64,000 nucleotides of DNA, taken from assembly GCA_000146045.2 (NCBI GenBank), contig BK006937.2:252621-316620 (forward strand), written 5' to 3'. Numbering within the stretch: position 1 is the stretch's first letter; the number at the start of each line of letters is the position of its first letter. The notes under the pieces were generated by a model. That model saw only the letters and a program-made list of their open reading frames with translations, was not told the origin of the DNA and searched no databases. This DNA comes from TPA_inf: Saccharomyces (Eukaryota). The position numbers and the translations under genes are program-made. This document shows, piece by piece, positions 12,448 through 64,000 of this stretch.

Positions 12448-14226
12448 ATGGCTTTGGAACCTATTGATTATACTACTCACTCGAGAGAGATCGACGCAGA
12501 GTACCTGAAGATTGTCAGAGGCTCCGATCCTGACACCACCTGGTTGATTATTTCACCCAATGCGAAAAAAGAATACGAACCTGAGTCTACCGGTTCCTCC
12601 TTTCACGATTTCTTGCAATTGTTTGATGAAACCAAGGTCCAGTACGGACTGGCACGTGTGTCCCCACCAGGGTCAGACGTTGAGAAGATTATTATCATTG
12701 GTTGGTGTCCTGATTCTGCGCCATTGAAGACAAGGGCCTCTTTCGCCGCCAATTTTGCTGCAGTTGCTAATAATCTGTTCAAGGGTTACCACGTTCAAGT
12801 TACCGCCAGAGACGAGGACGATCTTGACGAAAATGAACTGTTGATGAAAATCAGTAACGCGGCCGGTGCCCGTTATTCTATTCAGACTTCCTCCAAGCAA
12901 CAGGGGAAGGCTTCCACTCCTCCCGTGAAGAAATCCTTCACACCTTCCAAGAGCCCTGCTCCAGTTTCTAAGAAGGAACCAGTCAAGACTCCTTCCCCAG
13001 CACCTGCTGCTAAGATTTCTTCCCGTGTTAACGACAACAATGACGACGACGATTGGAATGAGCCTGAATTAAAGGAACGCGACTTCGATCAGGCTCCCCT
13101 GAAACCAAATCAATCATCTTACAAACCAATTGGCAAAATCGACTTGCAAAAAGTGATTGCTGAAGAAAAGGCTAAGGAGGACCCACGTCTTGTTCAAAAG
13201 CCAACCGCTGCTGGTTCCAAGATTGATCCTAGTTCTGATATCGCTAATTTAAAGAACGAATCAAAATTAAAGAGGGACTCCGAGTTTAACTCCTTTTTGG
13301 GCACCACTAAACCCCCCTCCATGACGGAATCTTCATTAAAGAATGATGATGATAAAGTCATTAAGGGTTTTAGAAACGAGAAATCACCTGCTCAATTATG
13401 GGCCGAAAGAAAGGCAAAGCAAAACAGCGGCAACGCCGAAACTAAGGCTGAGGCACCAAAACCTGAAGTTCCAGAAGATGAGCCTGAAGGTGAACCTGAC
13501 GTCAAAGATTTGAAATCAAAATTTGAAGGATTGGCCGCTTCAGAAAAAGAGGAGGAAGAAATGGAAAACAAATTTGCTCCTCCTCCAAAGAAATCAGAAC
13601 CAACTATTATCTCACCAAAACCCTTCTCCAAGCCACAAGAACCTGTGAAAGCTGAAGAAGCCGAGCAGCCTAAGACTGATTACAAGAAGATCGGCAACCC
13701 ATTACCCGGTATGCACATTGAAGCGGATAATGAGGAAGAACCAGAAGAGAATGATGATGACTGGGATGATGATGAAGACGAGGCTGCTCAACCTCCTTTG
13801 CCTTCGAGGAATGTTGCGTCAGGAGCACCAGTGCAAAAAGAAGAGCCTGAACAAGAAGAGATCGCCCCAAGCTTACCTTCTAGAAACTCGATCCCAGCTC
13901 CAAAACAAGAAGAAGCACCTGAACAAGCACCTGAAGAAGAAATTGAAGAAGAAGCTGAGGAAGCCGCTCCACAGCTGCCATCAAGAAGCTCTGCAGCTCC
14001 TCCTCCGCCTCCAAGACGAGCAACTCCAGAGAAAAAGCCAAAGGAAAATCCTTGGGCCACAGCAGAATATGATTACGATGCTGCAGAAGATAACGAACTG
14101 ACCTTTGTGGAAAATGACAAGATTATCAATATTGAATTTGTCGACGATGACTGGTGGCTAGGGGAACTAGAGAAAGACGGCTCAAAAGGTCTCTTCCCCA
14201 GCAATTATGTGTCTTTGGGCAACTAG
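12448..14226 (+). CDS. ABP1: Actin-binding protein with ADF-H domain, acidic/Pro-rich linker and C-terminal SH3
   Basis: 592-aa ORF; the C-terminus (AEYDYDAAEDNELTF...WWLGE...GLFPSNYV) is a canonical SH3 domain, and poly-P motifs (PPLPSR ×3) are present. Confidence 0.95.
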   Translation: MALEPIDYTTHSREIDAEYLKIVRGSDPDTTWLIISPNAKKEYEPESTGSSFHDFLQLFDETKVQYGLARVSPPGSDVEKIIIIGWCPDSAPLKTRASFAANFAAVANNLFKGYHVQVTARDEDDLDENELLMKISNAAGARYSIQTSSKQQGKASTPPVKKSFTPSKSPAPVSKKEPVKTPSPAPAAKISSRVNDNNDDDDWNEPELKERDFDQAPLKPNQSSYKPIGKIDLQKVIAEEKAKEDPRLVQKPTAAGSKIDPSSDIANLKNESKLKRDSEFNSFLGTTKPPSMTESSLKNDDDKVIKGFRNEKSPAQLWAERKAKQNSGNAETKAEAPKPEVPEDEPEGEPDVKDLKSKFEGLAASEKEEEEMENKFAPPPKKSEPTIISPKPFSKPQEPVKAEEAEQPKTDYKKIGNPLPGMHIEADNEEEPEENDDDWDDDEDEAAQPPLPSRNVASGAPVQKEEPEQEEIAPSLPSRNSIPAPKQEEAPEQAPEEEIEEEAEEAAPQLPSRSSAAPPPPPRRATPEKKPKENPWATAEYDYDAAEDNELTFVENDKIINIEFVDDDWWLGELEKDGSKGLFPSNYVSLGN

Positions 14227-14364
14227 AATCACACGTCAGCGTCATGCTATTATATTATTCTTACGTAAAAAAATACTTACAGAGACGTTAAAGCTTTTGT
14301 ATAGATACTTTCACGAGCCTTCCCTTTCAGTAAAATGAACAAATTATTTTGCCTTGTCCTTCTT

Positions 14365-14466
14365 TGTTTCAAGCGTTTATATGACTCCTCTACAGTATTA
14401 TTTTTCAACAGACGGTGTGCCCGTACGGCGTTGTCAAAACCTCGAACATAAAACAACACTGAAACA
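14365..14466. promoter_or_regulatory. Two pheromone-response-element-like TGAAACA motifs in the FIG2 promoter
   Basis: TGTTTCA at 14365-14371 (reverse orientation) and TGAAACA at 14460-14466, about 350-450 bp upstream of the FIG2 ATG. FIG2 is a pheromone-induced gene. Confidence 0.4.
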
Positions 14467-14813
14467 AACTTATTGCACTCCTGCATCGCATACAGATCTG
14501 ATACTTACTACAACCATAATGCTGTTTTAGAATCGCATCAGGTGTTTACCAGAAGTGTATGGTACATGGTGCTTTCCTTATGCTCACTATTTCGGATTTA
14601 CTTCTAGTCTATGTATAGATTTGTTAGAGACCAGTTTTAAGCTACAATGGAACGTTAAGATTAAGAAATGCATGAAGAGTCTCCCAGTAGATATATAAAG
14701 CTGAATTAAATTCAGTACAATGGAAGTTTCCACGTCTTTCTGTATTTTCATACCTTTAATTATAGGAAAAGCACACTACAAAAATACGCTATCATCTACC
14801 GAATATAACTGCA

Positions 14814-17800
14814 ATGAACTCATTTGCGTCATTAGGTCTGATATATTCAGTAGTAAACCTTTTAACTAGAGTAGAGGCTCAAATTGTGTTCTACCAGAAT
14901 AGTAGTACTTCACTGCCTGTCCCTACTTTAGTATCCACCTCAATAGCAGATTTTCACGAGTCCTCATCAACTGGCGAAGTGCAGTATTCATCCTCTTATT
15001 CGTATGTGCAGCCCTCAATAGACTCCTTCACTTCATCTAGCTTCTTAACAAGTTTTGAAGCTCCTACCGAAACTTCTTCCAGCTATGCAGTTTCTTCCTC
15101 ATTGATAACTTCTGATACTTTTTCTTCATACTCTGATATCTTCGATGAAGAAACAAGTTCATTAATATCAACCTCAGCTGCCTCATCGGAGAAAGCCTCG
15201 TCCACCCTTTCTTCAACTGCACAACCTCATAGGACATCTCACTCTTCCTCTTCATTCGAGCTACCAGTCACTGCTCCATCATCCTCTAGTTTACCGTCCT
15301 CAACTTCATTGACATTTACGTCAGTTAATCCATCTCAAAGTTGGACTTCATTTAACTCAGAAAAATCTAGCGCTCTTTCCTCAACCATAGATTTTACTTC
15401 TTCTGAGATTTCAGGTTCAACATCTCCAAAGAGCCTGGAAAGTTTCGATACCACCGGTACTATAACTTCATCTTATTCTCCTTCTCCTTCTTCAAAAAAT
15501 TCTAACCAGACCTCACTACTCAGCCCATTGGAGCCTCTGTCCAGTTCTTCAGGAGATTTAATATTGAGTTCAACTATTCAAGCTACTACCAATGACCAAA
15601 CTTCAAAAACTATTCCAACTCTTGTTGACGCCACATCGTCATTACCACCAACATTGAGGTCATCCAGTATGGCACCAACAAGTGGTTCTGATTCAATCTC
15701 ACACAACTTTACGAGCCCCCCCTCTAAAACAAGTGGTAACTACGATGTTTTGACTTCAAACTCAATAGATCCTTCTCTATTTACAACTACGAGTGAATAT
15801 TCATCTACACAATTGTCGAGTTTAAATCGGGCCTCAAAAAGTGAAACAGTTAATTTCACTGCTTCTATTGCTTCCACACCATTTGGTACAGATTCGGCTA
15901 CTTCTCTAATAGACCCCATTAGTTCAGTGGGTTCTACAGCATCTAGCTTTGTGGGAATTTCAACCGCCAATTTTAGTACACAAGGGAACTCGAACTATGT
16001 TCCTGAATCAACTGCAAGTGGAAGTTCACAATACCAGGACTGGTCAAGCTCTTCTCTTCCGCTGTCACAAACCACTTGGGTTGTCATCAACACAACTAAT
16101 ACACAAGGGTCTGTAACGTCAACCACATCCCCGGCTTATGTTTCTACGGCCACCAAAACGGTTGACGGGGTGATCACCGAATATGTTACATGGTGTCCTC
16201 TAACACAAACCAAATCACAAGCAATTGGGGTCAGTTCGTCCATTTCTAGCGTTCCACAAGCCTCCTCATTTAGCGGTAGTTCTATTTTGAGCTCCAATTC
16301 CAGCACTCTTGCTGCCTCGAACAACGTTCCTGAATCAACTGCAAGCGGAAGTTCACAATACCAGGACTGGTCAAGCTCTTCTCTTCCGCTGTCACAAACC
16401 ACTTGGGTTGTCATCAACACAACTAATACACAAGGGTCTGTAACGTCAACCACATCCCCGGCTTATGTTTCTACGGCCACCAAAACGGTTGACGGGGTGA
16501 TCACCGAATATGTTACATGGTGTCCTCTAACACAAACCAAATCACAAGCAATTGGGATCAGTTCATCCACGATTAGCGCCACACAAACCTCTAAACCATC
16601 TTCAATATTAACATTGGGGATATCGACCTTACAATTGTCTGATGCCACATTTAAGGGGACTGAAACTATAAACACCCATCTCATGACCGAAAGTACTTCA
16701 ATCACAGAGCCCACCTATTTTAGTGGCACATCGGATAGTTTTTATTTGTGCACCAGTGAAGTTAATCTTGCGTCTTCCTTATCTTCTTATCCAAATTTTT
16801 CATCTTCAGAAGGCTCTACGGCGACCATTACTAACTCTACCGTTACATTTGGATCGACCAGCAAGTATCCATCTACTAGTGTATCTAACCCAACAGAAGC
16901 CAGCCAACATGTGAGCTCTAGTGTGAACTCACTCACTGATTTTACTTCAAATTCAACCGAAACCATCGCAGTTATATCTAATATTCACAAAACTTCGTCA
17001 AATAAAGACTATTCATTGACGACTACGCAATTAAAGACCAGCGGAATGCAAACGCTTGTGCTTTCTACTGTCACAACAACGGTGAACGGTGCTGCTACGG
17101 AATACACAACGTGGTGCCCGGCATCAAGTATTGCTTATACGACATCCATATCATATAAAACATTAGTTTTGACCACTGAAGTCTGCTCTCATTCTGAGTG
17201 TACTCCAACGGTTATTACCAGTGTTACTGCAACAAGCTCTACAATCCCCCTTTTATCAACCTCTAGCTCTACGGTATTATCTTCTACAGTATCCGAAGGT
17301 GCAAAAAATCCCGCTGCTTCTGAAGTAACTATTAATACCCAAGTTTCTGCTACTTCCGAAGCTACTAGTACTAGCACTCAAGTGTCTGCTACTTCTGCGA
17401 CGGCCACTGCTAGCGAGAGTTCAACCACATCCCAGGTTTCTACTGCTTCCGAAACTATTAGCACTCTCGGTACTCAAAACTTTACCACTACTGGAAGCTT
17501 ACTTTTCCCGGCTTTGTCTACTGAAATGATAAATACTACTGTGGTTTCCCGAAAAACCCTAATTATTAGTACAGAGGTATGTTCCCATTCCAAATGTGTC
17601 CCAACAGTCATTACCGAGGTTGTTACTTCGAAAGGCACGCCTTCTAATGGACATTCTTCTCAAACTCTACAAACGGAGGCAGTAGAGGTGACATTGTCAT
17701 CCCATCAAACCGTAACTATGAGTACCGAAGTATGTTCTAATTCGATTTGCACACCGACTGTTATTACATCTGTGCAAATGAGAAGTACTCCTTTTCCATA

Positions 17801-35549: not shown

Positions 35550-36638
35550 CTATGTAAAAATATGTTCCCTATAAAAGTGATGCTCTTCCGGAACGTTTTC
35601 TTTTTCCCACAAATCTCGTTGAAACCTGAACCAATCTGGTAATTCAGAATCACAGGGTATCCTTATTTTGACGTTATCTTTTCCCCTTGCTTTATAATAG
35701 CCATAATCTCCATTTTCTTTTTTATTAAATGCTAATCTATACCTATGGCCAAAAATTCCTAGGTCAGAAGAGGTTTTCTTCAAATCGTCTCCTAGAACTC
35801 CACTTACTTGTAATACTTTATTATTTTTCACTTTGGTTTCGATTTGATTTATTAATGTCAAAAGCCGCTGAGGCACTTCTGGCTCTCTGCAAAGGTCATC
35901 TTCATTTACTCTAATAAGTTTGCCAGAATTGGCCTTATACTCTATCGAATGCGTCCTATTATTCTCAAGGGGCAATTTTTTTGCTTTGTTGTCCACAATT
36001 GTCTTATTATCCTTCTCCTGTTCTATCTCAATGTTAATTATTTCTAGAAATGTTTCCGCAAAATAATTTCTATTCTTACCAGAAAATAATCTGTACTCAT
36101 TTATGATTGATGCAATATTCCATTTCTGAATTTTTCGAAGTATACCAATGACCAACGCGGTCTTATCTACCAATAAAACATTATAATTATCCACATTCAA
36201 TAATGTTTTGAAAGTTCTTTTTAAACACGTGCTCTTAATCAGCATTAAGTCATCATTGTCAGTCAAGTGGTAAGCCAATTCCTCCTGAATTACAGGATCC
36301 CCTGTAGTAGAATTTTGTGACCCATTTGCAGTGGATTTTTTCTTTTCTTCCTGTAATGATAGAGTACTGTTATTATTCGAATATAAATTTGCGTTAGATA
36401 CAGAAGAGCTTTTTACCGGAACTGCCGCAGCCGAGAAATCAGACATCCTTAAAACAATCCATTTTATGGATGATCTTGTGAAAAAATCTTTGAAAAACTT
36501 GGATGGTTCTTGACCTCCAATAAATATAGCTGTCTTTAAATTGAGAGTTTCCAGAAAGGATAAATTTAATGTCTCCACTTTAGAACATCTATATATTCCT
36601 TCTTCAGCAATCCCAAAGTTAGCAGGTGGAACCAGCAT
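35550..36638 (-). CDS. OCA4: Cytoplasmic protein-tyrosine-phosphatase-like (Oca family) protein
   Basis: 362-aa ORF lying convergent with CDC50. Confidence 0.75.
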   Translation of the reverse strand: MLVPPANFGIAEEGIYRCSKVETLNLSFLETLNLKTAIFIGGQEPSKFFKDFFTRSSIKWIVLRMSDFSAAAVPVKSSSVSNANLYSNNNSTLSLQEEKKKSTANGSQNSTTGDPVIQEELAYHLTDNDDLMLIKSTCLKRTFKTLLNVDNYNVLLVDKTALVIGILRKIQKWNIASIINEYRLFSGKNRNYFAETFLEIINIEIEQEKDNKTIVDNKAKKLPLENNRTHSIEYKANSGKLIRVNEDDLCREPEVPQRLLTLINQIETKVKNNKVLQVSGVLGDDLKKTSSDLGIFGHRYRLAFNKKENGDYGYYKARGKDNVKIRIPCDSELPDWFRFQRDLWEKENVPEEHHFYREHIFT

Positions 36639-37394
36639 TATGAATTCAGGTTATGGATCGCACCAGTGCTGTAAGTGTCTCTCTTTTTATTCTACGATCT
36701 CCATATAACAACCACATCTCATTTCTTTACCTTACTGTCCATTTAATGCTAGAAAACTTCCGAATATTGTATTATTATTACCCGGATATGTCAAGGCGGT
36801 ATATTAAGATGTTCCTTTCAAAAGTTTCATTATACCGCATACGGTAAGGACAGCCATAAGTAGTTTTACTGATAAAATATGGGGCTAAAGAACTGTATAT
36901 TTATGGATAGCACTAAAAGTAAAGATTTTCCCCGTGTCCTGACTTGGAGAAACAAAATTTCATTGTCATAAAAAACTTTTAAAATATGATATTCAAAGCT
37001 TGAGCATTGGGCTTCTGGATGACAGTTCTAATCAAGTTGGGTCTAAGGATATTGCATGTATACAAAGGATTCTTTCGGAAAGTAATCCTGAAATATTTTT
37101 TTTTTTCGTCTGAACATACGAAAGTAAATAAAAAAAGTTCAATGCATGCCTTCCTATGCAAGATTTATAAAAGGTGAACAGGTCAGGAGCAGCCACATCT
37201 CAATAAAGGCAGTTAAAGACGGTGATGTAGGTGCAGAAAGAGAAAGTGAACAAAGGATGATTTGAGATGTGTAATGATTCGTTTGAGCAGCAACAACTGC
37301 TAAGATATTCATACTAATAGGCCACTTCACACATTATGCCTTGGAGAATATCCTGCATTGCTCCTTTTATAGTATAGTCTATTCAGCACTAACA

Positions 37395-37590
37395 AGCAAA
37401 GCGAACATAATGGTAAAACTAACTTCAACTGTTGCTGGTGTCGCCTGCATCGCTGGCCCTCCCCTCCACTACGGCCATTTTAGCACAACTTGAATGAGTC
37501 AACTTGGTTGAGTTGCATGTTAACGTCTCTGATATCAGAGCTCACTTGCTCAATAATACATGTTACAAACTGCCCACTAAATTGAACACT
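37395..37590 (+). pseudogene. Degenerate relic of a PAU (seripauperin) gene
   Basis: atggtaaaactaacttcaactgttgctggtg... aligns with the PAU3 5' coding sequence and its leader (cagcactaacaa...ca atg gt[ac]aaa[ct]taacttcaa), including ...gtcaacttggt.gaatt.ggtgtt.acgtctc.gatatcagagctca.ttg.ctcaata.tac. It is interrupted by stop codons and frameshifts after about 27 codons. Confidence 0.6.
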
Positions 37591-38748
37591 CTAACATTAT
37601 ATTGACCTGAATTATTTGAAACGAAGTCAACAGAATGATCACTGATTTTCCAATGTACTCCGCTATGTTGAAGCTAGCCATCTTAAGCGATCAATGACGG
37701 TGCTCAATCATTCTTCGAAATGGGCTAAAAATGACAGTTGAAATATATTCTTTACGTTCATTTTTTTTCATACTGCAAACCCATTCTAGAACCAATGGTA
37801 AAAGTGACGGGAGTTGCTTTCTTTTACTATTTCAATGATAGCTATAGCCTGCATACACACAAAAGAATGTAAGTGATTGCGTGAAAGCTTAAAGTCTTAA
37901 AACTGTATTTTTTTCAACTCCTCCCATATATTAAACTGGTCCTCACAGTTCGCAGGATAACTAACAATTAAAAAAATTGTTCATATGGTTGTATTTCTTT
38001 CCGTCTCACATTATTAAAATTCAACGAAGAAGTTTCTACAATAACAGACAAGGGCCTACGATTACTATGTACTGGAAGGTGAGTCTTGAATTCATCCTCA
38101 GAGATTGTTCTAAAGACCAACAGAAATCCATATAGATTACCGTAGTTACTCTGATGGAATTTCAGAGTAAGACCCTTGTCAACTTCATCACTTTAAGTTG
38201 AGATGTAGAAAGACACTTTTGTAAGGTCTCCAACAAGTATATTTGATAAATAGACTGTTGAGCTACAAAAACTCAATGTGAAGTAAAAGACCTCATAAAT
38301 GATCGATTATCTGTTTGGCAGGTACTAATAAAACTGCATTGGTGTCTTTTTTCACTTACGTTAAAAAAAACTTTTTGCAATGATTTAAGCGTGCGTGAAG
38401 ATAACACTACAATCCATTTTAAAGCAACATCCACATTGAGTGTATACACCACAAAGGTTTTTTCAGGGCGTTTTTCTCGCCACTTTATGTTGACCAAAAT
38501 TATTAATGGAACTTACAACGTTTCCAAAAGTTAGTTAAATACATACGTCTATTTACTAAGCAAGAAATATATCATGACAAGCCCAAATATTATATTGTTA
38601 TGTTTACAAAAAAAAAATGGCTATATACATCAAGTCTGGAGGCTTTTTATAACAAGCAAGTGGGGTAACTTAGACATAAGATTGACTTCTTTGAATTCAA
38701 CAAAAATACATACTTTTGATGATTTCAATGGTAGAAGCAGTAGTAACT

Positions 38749-39092
38749 ATGCCGATGAAATAAAATCCTGATATCATCTATATAGTAGTACTCACGTTAC
38801 TAGTATATCATCTATAAGATGTAGGAAAATGTCATAAGAAATGAGAAACAGTCATTAAATTTAATGGAAACGAAATGCAAGGATTGGTGATGAGATAAGA
38901 TAATGAAACATAGAAAACGAAAGGAGAAATAACAGTAGTATTATTATTATTATTATTATGTAGAAATATTGACTCTCTCTTGTAGATTCATATATCTTCA
39001 AGGGGAACTTCTTGTACATTTTGTATACCTATATTATAGCGTTTAACAACAATGGAATCCCAACAATTACCAAAATTTTCACACATTCCTCA
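38749..39092 (+). mobile_element. Diverged solo delta (Ty1/Ty2 LTR)
   Basis: About 344 bp that align to the Ty1 LTR: ...acgttactagtata...aacgcaaggattg.t.atg...tgtagaaatat...caacaatggaatcccaacaatta...cacacattcctca. Confidence 0.65.
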
Positions 39093-39301
39093 TATAAAAT
39101 CTAAGCAATGACTAGAGAACTATCGCTAAATTATATAGAGCAAGGAAACCGAATAATTACATGTGTCAGATAAGAAAAAAATAAAGAAAACAACGCGTCA
39201 TGAAAAAGAGTTACTGAACCTTCAGATCCTACTTATTGTAATGCTTCGCGACATCCAATCCATTTAATAATCAATTTAAAACTAGAGTTGGTAGAGTTCC
39301 T

Positions 39302-39547
39302 TGTTGAACGTGATAACCCAAAAGCATAATACGAGTAATGTTTCAGTATTGCTATTATATGTTTACACAAGGAAAACATATAATAACAAACCTCTAATCC
39401 GGTAGTACTTAAGAAACTATAGTTTCTATGTACAAAAAGGTAACTATGTAATTCTTACATTTACATAACATATAGAAGGGTCCAATAAACTTACTAAACT
39501 TACTACCTTGTTGTATATAGGCTAGATCGTAATCCACTACGTCAACA
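39302..39547 (+). mobile_element. Solo LTR with TGTTGA...TCAACA termini, consistent with a Ty5 LTR
   Basis: A 246-bp element with terminal inverted repeats, immediately left of HMR-E. Ty5 is known to target silent chromatin. Confidence 0.5.
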
Positions 39548-39670
39548 TAAAAAAAACTTAAGGAGTTTGAATTTTATGTACAAACAGATTGTTAAAATAT
39601 AATATAAGATTATGGAAACGAACTTGCTCTAAAAAAAATTTAAAGTTTTATAAAATCCTCGCACTATCGC

Positions 39671-39908
39671 TGTTATACATGATGTCCCCAAAGCGTGTAC
39701 AAATAATTTTGTAGTATTGTATCGGTAATATCATACAAGAAGAAAATAGTTGCAAATCTCTAACCCACTAGTACTTAAAAAAACTGTAGTTTCAGTGCAA
39801 AAAAGTTTTAACATTACGTATCTTGTACCCTTTTTATTGCATATAGAAAGGTCAAATAATCCTTCACATCATGAAATATAAGCTAAATCGCATTTCTTTT
39901 CGTCCACA
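39671..39908 (+). mobile_element. Second, more diverged copy of the same LTR family, in direct orientation
   Basis: Aligns with 39302-39547, for example ctctaa.cc..tagtacttaa.aaaact.tagtttc and atatagaa.ggtc.aataa, and ends cgtccaca versus cgtcaaca. Confidence 0.4.
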
Positions 39909-40053
39909 TTTGCAAACAAAACTTTTCAATAATAATTTTATAAATAGTATCAATATATATATATATATATATATTTATTTGTTTACTTTTTCTATCAGTG
40001 TTTTCAATTTTTTATTAAACAATGTTTGATTTTTTAAATCGCAATTTAATACC

Positions 40054-40149
40054 TAAATATAAAAAATGTTATTATATTGCAAAAACCCATCAACCTTGAA
40101 AAAAAGTAGAAACGTTTTATTTAATTCTATCAATACATCATAAAATACG
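40054..40149. promoter_or_regulatory. HMR-E silencer (ORC/ACS, Rap1 and Abf1 sites)
   Basis: An ACS match, TAAATATAAAA (the complement TTTTATATTTA fits WTTTAYRTTTW), lies at 40054-40064. A Rap1-like AAACCCATCAACC lies at about 40083-40098 and an Abf1 consensus ATCATAAAATACG (RTCRYN5ACG) at 40137-40149. An (AT)n tract at 39953-39976 is adjacent. Confidence 0.7.
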
Positions 40150-40558
40150 AACGATCCCCGTCCAAGTTATGAGCTTAATCTTCCATAAAAATATTTGAAA
40201 GCAATAGATCATGTACTAAACTAAAATCAGGGAAATTAAGACTCCTTTTGAAGTAATACCTATTACTTACTAATACGTTTGAGAATAAGCGCAGGTACTC
40301 CTGGTTTTTGTTAAAACTACAAATTTATACTTAGCATTACGAAGATTCTCGATTCCGAAAAACAAAAATTTTATCGTCATATACAAATCTAGAAATTACC
40401 AGAGCTATCCATCTTGTTCAAGAAGGTAGGCGAGGACATTATCTATCAGTACAAACATCTTAGTAGTGTCTGAGGAGAGGGTTGATTGTTTATGTATTTT
40501 TGCGAAATATATATATATATATATTCTACACAGATATATACATATTTGTTTTTCGGGC

Positions 40559-40918
40559 TCATTCTTTCTTCTTTGCCAGAGGCTCACCGCTCAAGAGGTC
40601 CGCTAATTCTGGAGCGATTGTTATTGTTTTTTCTTTTCTTCTTCTATTCGAAACCCAGTTTTTGATTTGAATGCGAGATAAACTGGTATTCTTCATTAGA
40701 TTCTCTAGGCCCTTGGTATCTAGATATGGGTTCTCGATGTTCTTTGCAAACCAACTTTCTAGTATTCGGACATTTTCTTTTGTAAACCGGTGTCCTCTGT
40801 AAGGTTTAGTACTTTTGTTTATCATATCTTGAGTTACCACATTAAATACCAACCCATCCGCCGATTTATTTTTCTGTGTAAGTTGATAATTACTTCTATC
40901 GTTTTCTATGCTGCGCAT
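40559..40918 (-). CDS. HMRA2: Silent a2 ORF (the 119-aa C-terminal alpha2-homeodomain segment)
   Basis: The ATG at 40918-40916 gives [13 protein letters not shown]...[11 protein letters not shown]..., which is identical to the C-terminal part of the alpha2 homeodomain protein. The full open frame runs to 41176 (205 aa) and matches alpha2 from [11 protein letters not shown] onward. Confidence 0.85.
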
Positions 40919-41214
40919 TTCTTTGAGTAATACAGTAATGGTAGTAGTGAGTTGAGATGTTGTTTGCAACAACTTCTTCTCCTCATCACTAATCTTACGG
41001 TTTTTGTTGGCCCTAGATAAGAATCCTAATATATCCCTTAATTCAACTTCTTCTTCTGTTGTTACACTCTCTGGTAACTTAGGTAAATTACAGCAAATAG
41101 AAAAGAGCTTTTTATTCTTGATTTTTGTTCTTTCGGGGAAACTGTATAAAACTTCCAAAAAGGAAAAGTAAAACAATACATCTCCTTATATCAAAGAAAA
41201 TCAAGAAGGACAAC

Positions 41215-41701
41215 ATGGATGATATTTGTAGTATGGCGGAAAACATAAACAGAACTCTGTTTAACATTCTAGGTACTGAGATTGATGAAATCAATCTCAA
41301 TACTAATAATCTTTATAATGTATGTTTTCATTTCAAGGATAGCCTTTGAATCAATTTACTAACAATACTTCAGTTTATAATGGAAAGTAATTTGACTAAA
41401 GTAGAGCAACATACATTACACAAAAATATTTCTAACAATAGGTTAGAAATATACCACCACATTAAAAAAGAGAAGAGCCCAAAGGGAAAATCATCAATAT
41501 CACCCCAAGCACGGGCATTTTTAGAACAGGTTTTTAGAAGAAAGCAAAGCCTTAATTCCAAGGAAAAAGAAGAAGTTGCAAAGAAATGTGGCATTACTCC
41601 ACTTCAAGTAAGAGTTTGGGTATGTAATATGAGAATCAAACTTAAATATATCCTATACTAACAATTTGTAGTTCATAAATAAACGTATGAGATCTAAATA
41701 A
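41215..41701 (+). CDS. HMRA1: Silent a1 homeodomain gene with three exons
   Basis: Exons at 41215-41319, 41374-41619 and 41672-41701 give 126 aa plus a stop. Both introns have GTATGT donors, TACTAAC branchpoints and AG acceptors. The spliced product ends ...PLQVRVWFINKRMRSK, restoring the WFxNxR homeodomain helix 3. Confidence 0.85.
41320..41373 (+). other. a1 intron 1 (54 nt)
   Basis: GTATGT...TACTAAC...CAG. Confidence 0.8.
41620..41671 (+). other. a1 intron 2 (52 nt)
   Basis: GTATGT...TACTAAC...TAG. Confidence 0.8.
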
Positions 41702-42382: not shown

Positions 42383-42710
42383 TGTTGGAATAAAAAACAA
42401 CTATCATCTATCAACTAGTAGTCACACTACCAATGTGTTATCATTATACTGTGTTAAACAATGACATAAGGTATGAAAATTTGTCAACGAAGTTAGAGAA
42501 AGCTGGATGCAAGGATTGATAATGTGGTAGGAAAATGAAACATATAACGGAATGAGGAATAATCGTAATATCAGTATATAGAAATATAGATTCCCTTTTG
42601 AGGATTCCTATATCCTCGAGGAGAACTTCTAGTATATTCTATATACCTAATATTATTACTTTTATCTACAATGCAACCCCACAATAATATAAAAATTCAC
42701 CAATTCCGCA
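42383..42710 (+). mobile_element. Ty1 solo delta LTR
   Basis: Begins tgttggaata and matches the Ty1 LTR along its length (...ggaatgaggaataatcgtaata...gaggattcctatatcctcgaggagaacttctagtata...). It lies about 150 bp upstream of a tRNA gene, the classical Ty1 target window. Confidence 0.8.
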
Positions 42711-42863: not shown

Positions 42864-42936
42864 GCTTCTATGGCCAAGTTGGTAAGGCGCCACACTAGTA
42901 ATGTGGAGATCATCGGTTCAAATCCGATTGGAAGCA
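42864..42936 (+). tRNA. tT(AGU): tRNA-Thr (anticodon AGT)
   Basis: A 73-nt sequence, gcttctatggccaagttggtaaggcgccacactagtaatgtggagatcatcggttcaaatccgattggaagca, with an acceptor stem pairing GCTTCTA with TGGAAGC, a D-loop AGTTGGTAA and a T-loop GGTTCAAATCC. This gene is the known right-hand boundary element of HMR heterochromatin. Confidence 0.9.
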
Positions 42937-42943: not shown

Positions 42944-44428
42944 TCACGTTATTCGGTGACACCCAGGTTGCCGCCGCGTTCGCGTCCATCGTCATCTGAA
43001 AAATAATGAATATTAATGGACCTTGTGCCCCATAAAGGTTCCATGTTCCATAAGTCTTCAATAATACTTTTGTATATTAAATTTACCGTTATTCGGAGAT
43101 CTCTTACGGCTTATGATTTTCTTTACATTCCAGGCCGCCTTTTGATGACATTCAGTGCGTCACGACGCGAATAGGGCTTTGAAAGCCTTAATGTGGAGTA
43201 AATAAATATATGAATGCAATAAGTAAACATAAGACGAGTTCTTCTATATCCGGTGTACCTAATAATATAGATTTTGCCAACAATGGAATCTCATTACCCA
43301 TCCCAAGATAAAATATTGATCAAGGCATGGGCCACCAACATAGGAATACGCAAAATAGGATTGATATTTTTACATATTATATTATCTTTCTTCTTCTGTC
43401 TCAAATATAGCTCTTCTCCTATTTAAAAAATTATCAATTCTTGAATCTCAACTTCCATTAAATTTGATGATTGTTTCCCAATATCGATGTCATCTTTTTA
43501 CACTGTAAATTATAATTTACTAGGAACATGAATACTGATCAATGGATGATAGTTGATTCTTATTGCAATAAAAAGTACTTTCTAAGACGCTAGGACTTCT
43601 AAACACAGATATTATGAAAATGCCAAAAAATACAGAATATTTTCCTTCTTTTCACTATAACAAGTAGTAAGAAATTAAGCAATATGGTAATTTGAGCTTA
43701 TCAGATAAAAGATCCTGGTAGTCTTGCAAAGGTGTGAGTACTTTTGATGAAACTAAGTTTCAGCGCAGCTATTTCAATTTTGGAACCTTTAAAGAAAGTT
43801 TAATCGAAACATTGAACGATCCAAAGCACAACTTTGTAGCGGGAAGTCACAAACAAATATAAAAAGTGTTAATAAACTGCCATCCTATGTTAGAATTGTG
43901 AAACTTTTTGGACTAATAAAAGGTTTTCAACATGGTGTTCCAAAGCACTTATTTCTAGGTTAGCTATGGTAACGAGTTTTAACGTAATCAAAACAATATA
44001 CAATTCAAGATCTGTATCATTTACACTAACACACCCCATTTTAATAGAGCTGAGTACTTCCTACATTTCTTTTGCATATGATATCGCCACTGCATCATTT
44101 CTGTAGTCGTAAAATTTCCTTCTCATTAAGACACCGAAAATAGCTAAGGATTATAACAAAACAAACAAATGCTCAAACAAAACTTTTAGTAAATCTTTTG
44201 AAATGTAAAAGTTACTTAGAATAACTAAAAAAAAAATATTACGCTATACCATATATTTCCATTCCCAATTTTATCGTTTTATAATAATATTCAGTTTCAA
44301 GAACAATGAATATATTTCAAACATTACATGCACTCTTGGGAGTAAGCTGCATCATAATAAATTAAAATTAACGCTTTAGAAAAAGAAATTTTGAGGTTAA
44401 AGGATGGAGGAAGAAATCGATACCAATT

Positions 44429-61269: not shown

Positions 61270-62361
61270 ATGATTGGGTCCGCGTCCGACTCATCTAGCA
61301 AGTTAGGACGCCTCCGATTTCTTTCTGAAACTGCCGCTATTAAAGTATCCCCGTTAATCCTAGGAGAAGTCTCATACGATGGAGCACGTTCGGATTTTCT
61401 CAAATCAATGAACAAGAATCGAGCTTTTGAATTGCTTGATACTTTTTACGAGGCAGGTGGAAATTTCATTGATGCCGCAAACAACTGCCAAAACGAGCAA
61501 TCAGAAGAATGGATTGGTGAATGGATACAGTCCAGAAGGTTACGTGATCAAATTGTCATTGCAACCAAGTTTATAAAAAGCGATAAAAAGTATAAAGCAG
61601 GTGAAAGTAACACTGCCAACTACTGTGGTAATCACAAGCGTAGTTTACATGTGAGTGTGAGGGATTCTCTCCGCAAATTGCAAACTGATTGGATTGATAT
61701 ACTTTACGTTCACTGGTGGGATTATATGAGTTCAATCGAAGAATTTATGGATAGTTTGCATATTCTGGTCCAGCAGGGCAAGGTCCTCTATTTGGGTGTA
61801 TCTGATACACCTGCTTGGGTTGTTTCTGCGGCAAACTACTACGCTACATCTTATGGTAAAACTCCCTTTAGTATCTACCAAGGTAAATGGAACGTGTTGA
61901 ACAGAGATTTTGAGCGTGATATTATTCCAATGGCTAGGCATTTCGGTATGGCCCTCGCCCCATGGGATGTCATGGGAGGTGGAAGATTTCAGAGTAAAAA
62001 AGCAATGGAGGAACGGAGGAAGAATGGAGAGGGTATTCGTTCTTTCGTTGGCGCCTCCGAACAAACAGATGCAGAAATCAAGATTAGTGAAGCATTGGCC
62101 AAGATTGCTGAGGAACATGGCACTGAGTCTGTTACTGCTATTGCTATTGCCTATGTTCGCTCTAAGGCGAAAAATTTTTTTCCGTCGGTTGAAGGAGGAA
62201 AAATTGAGGATCTCAAAGAGAACATTAAGGCTCTCAGTATCGATCTAACGCCAGACAATATAAAATACTTAGAAAGTATAGTTCCTTTTGACATCGGATT
62301 TCCTAATAATTTTATCGTGTTAAATTCCTTGACTCAAAAATATGGTACGAATAATGTTTAG
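61270..62361 (+). CDS. AAD3: Aryl-alcohol dehydrogenase (aldo-keto reductase family)
   Basis: 366-aa ORF (363 aa from MIGSASD) recognised as an AKR-superfamily aryl-alcohol dehydrogenase and a member of the subtelomeric AAD paralog family. Confidence 0.8.
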   Translation: MIGSASDSSSKLGRLRFLSETAAIKVSPLILGEVSYDGARSDFLKSMNKNRAFELLDTFYEAGGNFIDAANNCQNEQSEEWIGEWIQSRRLRDQIVIATKFIKSDKKYKAGESNTANYCGNHKRSLHVSVRDSLRKLQTDWIDILYVHWWDYMSSIEEFMDSLHILVQQGKVLYLGVSDTPAWVVSAANYYATSYGKTPFSIYQGKWNVLNRDFERDIIPMARHFGMALAPWDVMGGGRFQSKKAMEERRKNGEGIRSFVGASEQTDAEIKISEALAKIAEEHGTESVTAIAIAYVRSKAKNFFPSVEGGKIEDLKENIKALSIDLTPDNIKYLESIVPFDIGFPNNFIVLNSLTQKYGTNNV

Positions 62362-62895
62362 ATAATTTTTCAGTAATCAACTACGCAAGTAAAGCAGTAA
62401 ATACGTTACTGCTGGTATTAATGTCATGTATTGAGGCAATGATGCTATGCTCTTAACGACATGTAGCTTACAAAACGTTCCTATGGTTTTACTGCATGGT
62501 ATTTACAAATTAGATAGCAGTTCCATCCGCCCTTGACATATTATTATTCAGACAAGGTGTATATGAGCATAAATATGTATATATGCACATGAGGTTTGTA
62601 TTAACCTTGCAACTGTACCAAAATACAATCTTCTTTGCTGCTATTTAACGGCGTATGTGCAGTTCATAAATGCGTGTTCTGTATAGTACATCCGCGCACA
62701 TTCTTCCTAGCGGAAGACATATTAACGTAGCCCGTACGCCCTGGTTAAGACTTGGTATAGTTCCAATAATTGGAATATTACTGCATAGTGGTCCAATAGC
62801 AGGATTTAGCATAAACATGATAATATTTAGAGATGCTTTCATCCCTCTGACGAAGGTGGTAGAGAACAAGAAAATGAATAACATTATATCATATT

Positions 62896-62989: not shown

Positions 62990-63899
62990 CACTACTATAT
63001 TATAACTTAGTGAATAAAGAGTGTTACAATAGTGAGGTGCATATTATTCTAATGTAAGGTCTGTATAAGTACGAAATATTCTGAAGTGGCATCCAGTCAA
63101 GCAAATGGTAATATTAAGGAACTTTTAAGTTAATGACGTCATGGTAGTGCTCGTACTTCAAGTCAAAGTGTTTATGTATTATGGTTGAAGAATAGAATAT
63201 TTTTATGTTTAGGTGATTTTAGTGGTGATTTTTCTGTAATATTGACATAAGTGTATATAAATTAAGTGGTTAGTATACGGTGAAAAAGAGGTATAACGTA
63301 TGTATTAAGGGAATTTATACGATATTTGGGCCCGCCGAATGAGATATAGATATTAAAATGTGGATAATCGTGGGCTTTATGGGTAAATGGCACAGGGTAT
63401 AGACCGCTGAGGCAAGTGCCGTGCATAATGATGTGGGTGCATTTGGTACTGATTTAGTGAGAATGGGCCATGGATTGGAGTGTGAGAGTAGGGTAACTTG
63501 AGAGTGGTATATACTGTAGCATCCGTGTGCGTATGCCCCATCAATATAAGTGAAGGTGAGTATGGCATGTGGTGGTGGTATAGAGTGGTAGGGTAAGTAT
63601 GTATGTATTATTTACGATCATTTGTTAACGTTTCAATATGGTGGGTGAACAACAGTACAGTGAGTAGGACATGGTGGATGGTAGGGTAATAGTAGGGTAA
63701 GTGGTGGTGGAGTTGGATATGGGTAATTGGAGGGTAACGGTTATGATGGGCGGTGGATGGTGGTAGTAAGTAGAGAGATGGATGGTGGTTGGGAGTGGTA
63801 TGGTTGAGTGGGGCAGGGTAACGAGTGGGGAGGTAGGGTAATGTGAGGGTAGGTTTGGAGACAGGTAAAATCAGGGTTAGAATAGGGTAGTGTTAGGGT
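62990..63899. repeat. Subtelomeric X element (core X plus TTAGGG-containing subtelomeric repeats)
   Basis: The core region has an ACS match TTTTATGTTTA at 63201-63211 and an Abf1 consensus CGTGCATAATGAT (reverse RTCRYN5ACG) at 63419-63431. From about 63485 there are iterated (T)AGGGTAA/TTAGGG motifs (Tbf1-type sites). Boundaries are approximate. Confidence 0.55.
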
Positions 63900-64000
63900 A
63901 GTGTGTGGGTGTGGGTGTGTGGGTGTGGTGTGTGGGTGTGGTGTGTGTGGGTGTGGTGTGTGGGTGTGGGTGTGTGGGTGTGGTGGGTGTGGTGTGTGTG
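63900..64000 (+). repeat. Terminal telomeric TG1-3 repeat tract
   Basis: Irregular (TG)1-3 TGGG repeats, gtgtgtgggtgtgggtgtgtgggtgtggtg..., run to the end of the window with no Y' element. Confidence 0.95.

Follow-up and report, generated by a model that had tools for sequence, protein, structure and literature searches.

The analysed stretch of DNA, a window of 64,000 nucleotides, corresponds, as judged from its open reading frames and a tRNA scan, to the end of the right arm of chromosome III of Saccharomyces cerevisiae; since TG1-3 telomeric repeats occupy positions 63900-64000, the chromosome terminates with these 64 kb. Positions refer to the window unless another sequence is named, those published for chrIII (sacCer2) being converted by subtracting 252617, a value obtained from matching the published coordinates. 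The HMR a2/a1 homeodomain ORFs (40559-41661) come after the core of the HMR-E silencer, which covers 40054-40149 and in which a motif scan located the ACS (TTTTATATTTA; 40054-40064, minus strand), the Rap1 site (40086-40095) and the Abf1 site (40137-40149). To the left lies OCA4 (35550-36638, minus strand), and on the far side of HMR the gene for tRNA-Thr(AGU) at 42864-42936, the sole tRNA gene detected by the scan in the 64 kb. The remaining ORFs of the window include one for a 2108-aa protein of the CNOT1/Not1 family, one of the CDC50 family and one of the sugar-transporter/MFS family.

The interval between OCA4 and HMR-E is the subject of the present study. It contains three LTR relics—a delta and two Ty5 LTRs, the latter designated here as copies A and B—preceded, on the side of OCA4, by a frame-shifted PAU-like (seripauperin/SRP1-TIP1) pseudogene at 37341-37700 on the plus strand. 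The ORF pieces of this pseudogene, including the one beginning MVKLTSTVAGV, match an intact 124-aa gene that occupies the corresponding site in S. kudriavzevii (L012:8849-9223), and the stretch is also similar to subtelomeric sequence of the metagenome contig L001, which adds to the subtelomere-like nature of the interval.

Three solo LTRs left of the HMR-E silencer

All three LTRs are on the plus strand. The delta starts 1304 bases from the ACS of HMR-E, copy A ends 506 bp from it and copy B exactly 145 bases from it, so that the arrangement given in the preliminary description—three solo LTRs of the same orientation within 1.3 kb to the left of the silencer, the nearer Ty5-like one about 145 bp from the ACS—has been confirmed at essentially the same positions.

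The delta, a diverged solo LTR of the Ty1/Ty2 type known as YCRWdelta12 (chrIII_st25+_TY1), covers 38750-39092, i.e. 343 bp, its boundaries being set by the TG...CA ends and its membership in the delta family by homology. The preliminary description was thus right about the presence of a diverged delta, the start being, however, at 38750, where the TG end is found, and not at 38749. The published annotation, chrIII 291373-291709, corresponds to 38756-39092 (Carr et al. 2012, File S2, PMC3511429), and the element is classed there as solo and inactive, with fixation in 24/24 scored strains. It exhibits 70% identity to positions 4-318 of the library TY2-LTR on the plus strand (E 5e-35) and 69% to the delta found in the window at 42386-42710 (E 2e-32). 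The flanking pentanucleotides, AACTA and TATAA, agree at two of five positions and do not represent a target-site duplication.

Concerning the two Ty5 LTRs, copy A (YCRWomega3; 39302-39547, 246 bp) has been preserved with the exact termini TGTTGA...TCAACA. It is byte-identical to the row chrIII_st26+_TY5, chrIII 291919-292164 in sacCer2, described as solo, inactive and fixed in 21/21 scored strains (Carr et al. 2012, PMC3511429). Copy B (39671-39908, 238 bp) is degenerate, with the termini TGTTAT...TCCACA, of which the former retains four and the latter five of the six positions of the Ty5 inverted repeat; they are still recognisable. The claim that both elements of about 240 bp possess the TGTTGA...TCAACA ends therefore holds for copy A, but not for copy B. 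The latter is byte-identical to the row chrIII_st27+_TY5, chrIII 292288-292525 in sacCer2, which was given no SGD name and which is also solo, inactive and fixed, in 19/19 scored strains (Carr et al. 2012, PMC3511429). A second S. cerevisiae assembly (L011), diverged by 2% across the interval, carries all three LTRs, too. It may be added that copy A contains a 9-bp tandem duplication, TAAACTTAC present twice, at 39486-39503, which is private to this copy among the Ty5 LTRs of the published alignment (Carr et al. 2012).

Family assignment and independence of the two Ty5 LTRs

The reference set consisted of an alignment of the Ty5 LTRs from the reference genome together with the repeat library (Carr, Bensasson & Bergman 2012, PMC3511429), the 5' LTR of Ty5-1, the sole full-length Ty5 element, being used for comparison. 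Ty5 similarity of 39302-39547, the check proposed in the preliminary description, is evident: copy A aligns end to end with positions 1-251 of the Ty5-1 5' LTR (E 6e-64), and alignments over its whole length were likewise obtained for the library TY5-LTR (E 2e-62) and for a profile HMM derived from seven Ty5 LTRs other than the HMR copies (E 6e-61); its identity to the other Ty5 LTRs reaches 85-88%. Copy B is more distant, yielding E 6.5e-19 for positions 59-251 of the Ty5-1 5' LTR and E 1e-15 for positions 55-251 in the second LTR alignment; against the profile of seven Ty5 LTRs, from which both HMR copies had been left out, nhmmer gives E 5e-26 over HMM positions 9-247. It is 64-69% identical to the other Ty5 LTRs, the best match being chrV_s145 (69%). 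The same profile revealed no further significant match in the 64 kb beyond the two copies. As judged from their sequences, copies A and B thus both qualify as Ty5 (omega) LTRs in homology, in length and termini, and in their solo state.

The two copies are about 65-69% identical to each other (E 1e-8), their global alignment score exceeding that of shuffled sequences with z = 12.7. They have a 20-nt motif in common, which the window contains at these two places only, whereas none was expected from shuffles; chance is thereby excluded as the source of the resemblance. The spacer between them, 123 bp long (39548-39670), is not Ty5 internal sequence: the two end portions of the library Ty5 internal sequence, its first 600 nt and its last 574 nt, find no match in the window (best E 0.37), and the comparison of junction sequences revealed neither a Ty5 primer-binding site after copy A nor a polypurine tract before copy B.

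Two ways of deriving both copies from a single insertion were considered. One of them, a local duplication of copy A, tandem or segmental, that produced copy B, takes its appeal from the common orientation, the short distance of 123 bp and the similar length of the two copies; it had been put forward in the preliminary description as the reading to adopt if no similarity to Ty5 LTRs were seen, a situation that did not arise, since both copies match Ty5 LTRs elsewhere. It is, moreover, at odds with the pattern of identities, because copy A is 86-88% identical to the copies from chromosomes V, VII and XI but 65% identical to copy B, whereas the closest relative of copy B is chrV_s145 and not copy A. 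The similarity between them stops at the LTR borders (z of 0.8 and 1.8 for the flanks vs 12.7 for the LTR bodies), both are recognised by a family profile built without them, and the family has an independent locus, chrVII_st81/st82, adjoining X-element-like sequence. On the identity pattern and the unrelated flanks, local duplication has been rejected, its probability being practically negligible. The other possibility, that a single Ty5 element, its interior collapsed to 123 bp, supplied copy A as its 5' LTR and copy B as its 3' LTR, would account for the same orientation, for the closeness and for the fact that neither copy has a target-site duplication of its own. The two LTRs of one element start as identical sequences, yet copy A has diverged from the family by about 12-15% and copy B by about 31-36%; the spacer contains neither a primer-binding site nor a polypurine tract nor any match to the Ty5 internal ends, and the outer flanks, TTCCT and TTTGC, agree at two of five positions only. 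It is therefore very improbable that a single collapsed element is involved, and this derivation has been rejected as well, on the unequal divergence of the LTRs and the content of the spacer. The two Ty5 LTRs are thus best seen as the products of independent insertions.

The search for target-site duplications of 5 bp, also suggested in the preliminary description, had a negative outcome, none of the three elements having retained an intact one. The flanks of copy A, TTCCT and TAAAA, agree at one of five positions; those of copy B, ATCGC and TTTGC, agree at three, the chance probability of three or more being about 0.15, and do not represent a duplication. Allowing the boundaries to shift by ±4, the length to vary from 4 to 6 and the flanks to be paired across elements, no perfect repeat was found for any element. 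In the absence of the duplications, a simple history—insertion followed by recombination within the element—is not demonstrated; their loss needs either decay in a fast-evolving region or recombination between elements, and it does not contradict the family identity of the LTRs.

Copy B looks older, or has decayed faster, than copy A. It should be noted, however, that its divergence of 31-36% is not convertible to an age, because the interval evolves unusually fast: silenced DNA is subject to accelerated substitution, and its flanks are hyperdivergent (Teytelman et al. 2008, PMC2570616).

The interval in other Saccharomyces species

The orthologous loci were located via the homologues of OCA4 in S. 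paradoxus CBS432 (L009), S. arboricola, S. eubayanus and S. kudriavzevii. For S. paradoxus, the comparison was based on anchored BLAST blocks, an unanchored global MAFFT alignment having been uninformative owing to the divergence of 35-45%; the behaviour of 38570-40310 against L009 agrees with the published hyperdivergence of silenced flanks (PMC2570616). Two blocks are collinear between the two species, positions 38570-38747 corresponding to 14098-14276 of S. paradoxus (in the reverse complement of L009) and positions 39126-39242 to 14322-14431. Between them, there are 378 bp in S. cerevisiae vs 45 bp in S. paradoxus CBS432, and the latter sequence gives no match to a delta. The absence of the delta from the collinear site is most simply explained by its insertion in the S. 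cerevisiae lineage.

The silencer itself is recognisable in S. paradoxus, which keeps the HMR-E Rap1 site at 14802-14811 and the Abf1 site at 14856-14868. About 270 bp to the left of this Rap1 site, at 14494-14532 (L009 6558-6596), there is a remnant of the 3'-end of a Ty5 LTR, terminating with TCAACA (E 4e-4), and a second, marginal fragment is positioned nearer to the silencer, at 14669-14712 (L009 6378-6421; E 0.02-0.05). Only 39-44 nt survive in these remnants, which may be orthologues of one of the two copies, A or B, or may stem from independent insertions. In the orthologous loci of S. arboricola, S. eubayanus and S. kudriavzevii, no Ty5 LTR was found.

Targeting, tolerance and the left boundary of HMR

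The targeting of Ty5 to HML, HMR and telomeres through the interaction of its integrase with Sir4 is established, the targeting domain of the integrase that binds Sir4 comprising six residues (PMC7175516, PMC5911963). In assays of de novo insertion by active Ty5, about 76% of the new insertions were found in heterochromatin, depending on the integrase-Sir4 interaction (PMC7175516), and the association of Ty5 with HMR is claimed in the very title of the paper by Zou, Wright & Voytas (1995, PNAS 92:920). Copies A and B lie near the silencer ACS in what the literature describes as Sir-dependent silent chromatin, and their distances to the ACS, 506 and 145 bp, are in agreement with the model of targeting by Sir4. 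It is accordingly proposed that the two Ty5 copies owe their location to such tethering: the short targeting domain of the integrase would bind Sir4 and thereby hold the integration complex at the silent chromatin nucleated by HMR-E. Each relic would then be what remained after the loss of a full element, normally by recombination between its two LTRs, and would have decayed further by point mutation. It is from the literature that both the tethering and the origin of solo LTRs by recombination are inferred.

The delta, a Ty1/Ty2 element, is not explained by targeting of the Ty5 style, and would go back to an event of its own in the lineage of S. cerevisiae. Insertion close to genes transcribed by Pol III is a typical property of Ty1/Ty2, although it is no requirement for membership in the delta family. 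The sole tRNA gene of the window is 3.8 kb away from this delta, on the other side of HMR, and Pol III targeting of Ty1 therefore fails to explain it as well. The persistence of the delta is probably due to the silent, gene-poor nature of the interval.

With the identity, family, orientation and positions of the LTRs, the independence of the two Ty5 copies, the fixation of all three elements and the absence of the delta from S. paradoxus established, the interval very probably holds three fixed, inactive solo LTRs resulting from one Ty1/Ty2 insertion and two independent insertions of Ty5, the latter directed there via Sir4. The same cluster could have arisen mainly by tolerance, insertions having been purged everywhere except in a gene-poor silent interval, where their relics accumulate passively. 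The retention of a Ty1-type delta, which makes no use of Sir4 and is situated far from tRNA genes, the PAU-like pseudogene next door at 37341-37700 and the fixation of all three LTRs speak for it; the preference of de novo insertions of active Ty5 for the HM loci and telomeres, dependent on Sir4 (PMC7175516), and the fact that members of the Ty5 family elsewhere adjoin X elements speak against it. As the main cause, tolerance is thus considered rather unlikely, while it probably contributes to retention, especially that of the delta. A reading that concerns function and not origin is that the relics—YCRWdelta12, YCRWomega3 and the unnamed Ty5 LTR—form, or contribute to, a left barrier against the spread of Sir proteins toward OCA4. 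According to Mano et al., the structure of the left boundary of HMR has not been elucidated; in their work, URA3 replacing the LTR was expressed, whereas an insertion nearer to HMR-E variegated, and this, along with the fixation of the LTRs in all scored strains, is in line with a barrier. The arrangement is, however, not conserved, S. paradoxus lacking the delta and having Ty5 fragments of only about 40 bp, and the loci of S. arboricola, S. eubayanus and S. kudriavzevii being without any Ty5 LTR; most old LTRs are fixed genome-wide anyway, and nearness to a boundary is no proof of function. A barrier role of the relics is thus quite improbable.

Sir4-directed insertion of the two Ty5 elements, with the delta as a separate event, is therefore the preferred reading, and it concerns known objects: both Ty5 copies and the delta have already been annotated, the essentials have been published, and functional papers already take these LTRs as landmarks. 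The flank of HMR-E is a textbook case of a naturally preserved record of retrotransposition targeted to chromatin, the Ty5 integrase being tethered by Sir4, and because the locus has been annotated and published, the confirmation brings no new biology. What is added to the published record is the lack of intact target-site duplications, the degenerate terminal hexamers of copy B and the 9-bp duplication in copy A; the insertion of the delta in the S. cerevisiae lineage, the Ty5 remnant in S. paradoxus and the unsuitability of the divergence as a measure of age are likewise modest extras.

Relation to Ty5 LTRs at subtelomeres and to known arrangements around HMR

A pattern scan of metagenome sequences delivered six loci; three of them, L003-L005, were discarded, since their resemblance did not extend beyond a fortuitous 20-mer match. 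The contig L001 is the chrVII subtelomere with the LTRs chrVII_st81/st82, which adjoin X-element-like sequence. Positions 455-671 of L001 represent a Ty5 LTR with the exact TGTTGA...TCAACA ends, and positions 672 to about 830 a second, 5'-truncated one directly abutting the first; the sequence adjoining the pair is 94% identical to 63082-63530 of the window. About 700 bp centromere-proximal of this latter X-element-like segment near the right telomere, at 62332-62375, there is a 44-nt fragment with similarity to the 5' portion of a Ty5 LTR, sharing 84% identity with L001 670-712, i.e. with chrVII_st82 (E 1.6e-5). It is marginal with the profile HMM (E 0.09-0.25) and is absent from the chrIII Ty5 list of Carr et al. 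(2012, PMC3511429).

The closest known counterpart of copies A and B is, of course, the published pair itself, YCRWomega3 with its unnamed neighbour (Carr et al. 2012), which are the Ty5 elements associated with HMR by Zou, Wright & Voytas (1995), the sequence, position, orientation and class being the same. Concerning the chrVII_st81/st82 pair, it belongs to the same family, with 83-88% identity to copy A, and it resembles the HMR pair in that two LTRs of one orientation are stacked beside an ACS-bearing site of heterochromatin nucleation. It differs in the target, which is a telomeric X element and not an HM silencer, and in that its second member, chrVII_st82, is, unlike the HMR copies, truncated at the 5' end and follows the first without a gap. 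Another comparison is offered by a second LTR cluster to the right of HMR, consisting of the delta YCRWdelta13 (42383-42710; 77% identity to the library TY2-LTR), the gene for tRNA-Thr(AGU), situated about 150 bp downstream of it, and an inverted delta fragment at 43430-43568. The YCRWdelta13/tRNA-Thr pair, which the left-hand relics would parallel if they acted as a barrier, is a typical Pol III-targeted arrangement, unlike that of YCRWdelta12 to the left of HMR: Ty1 is typically placed upstream of a Pol III gene, at no more than a few hundred bp from it, whereas YCRWdelta12, at 3.8 kb, is placed atypically for it.
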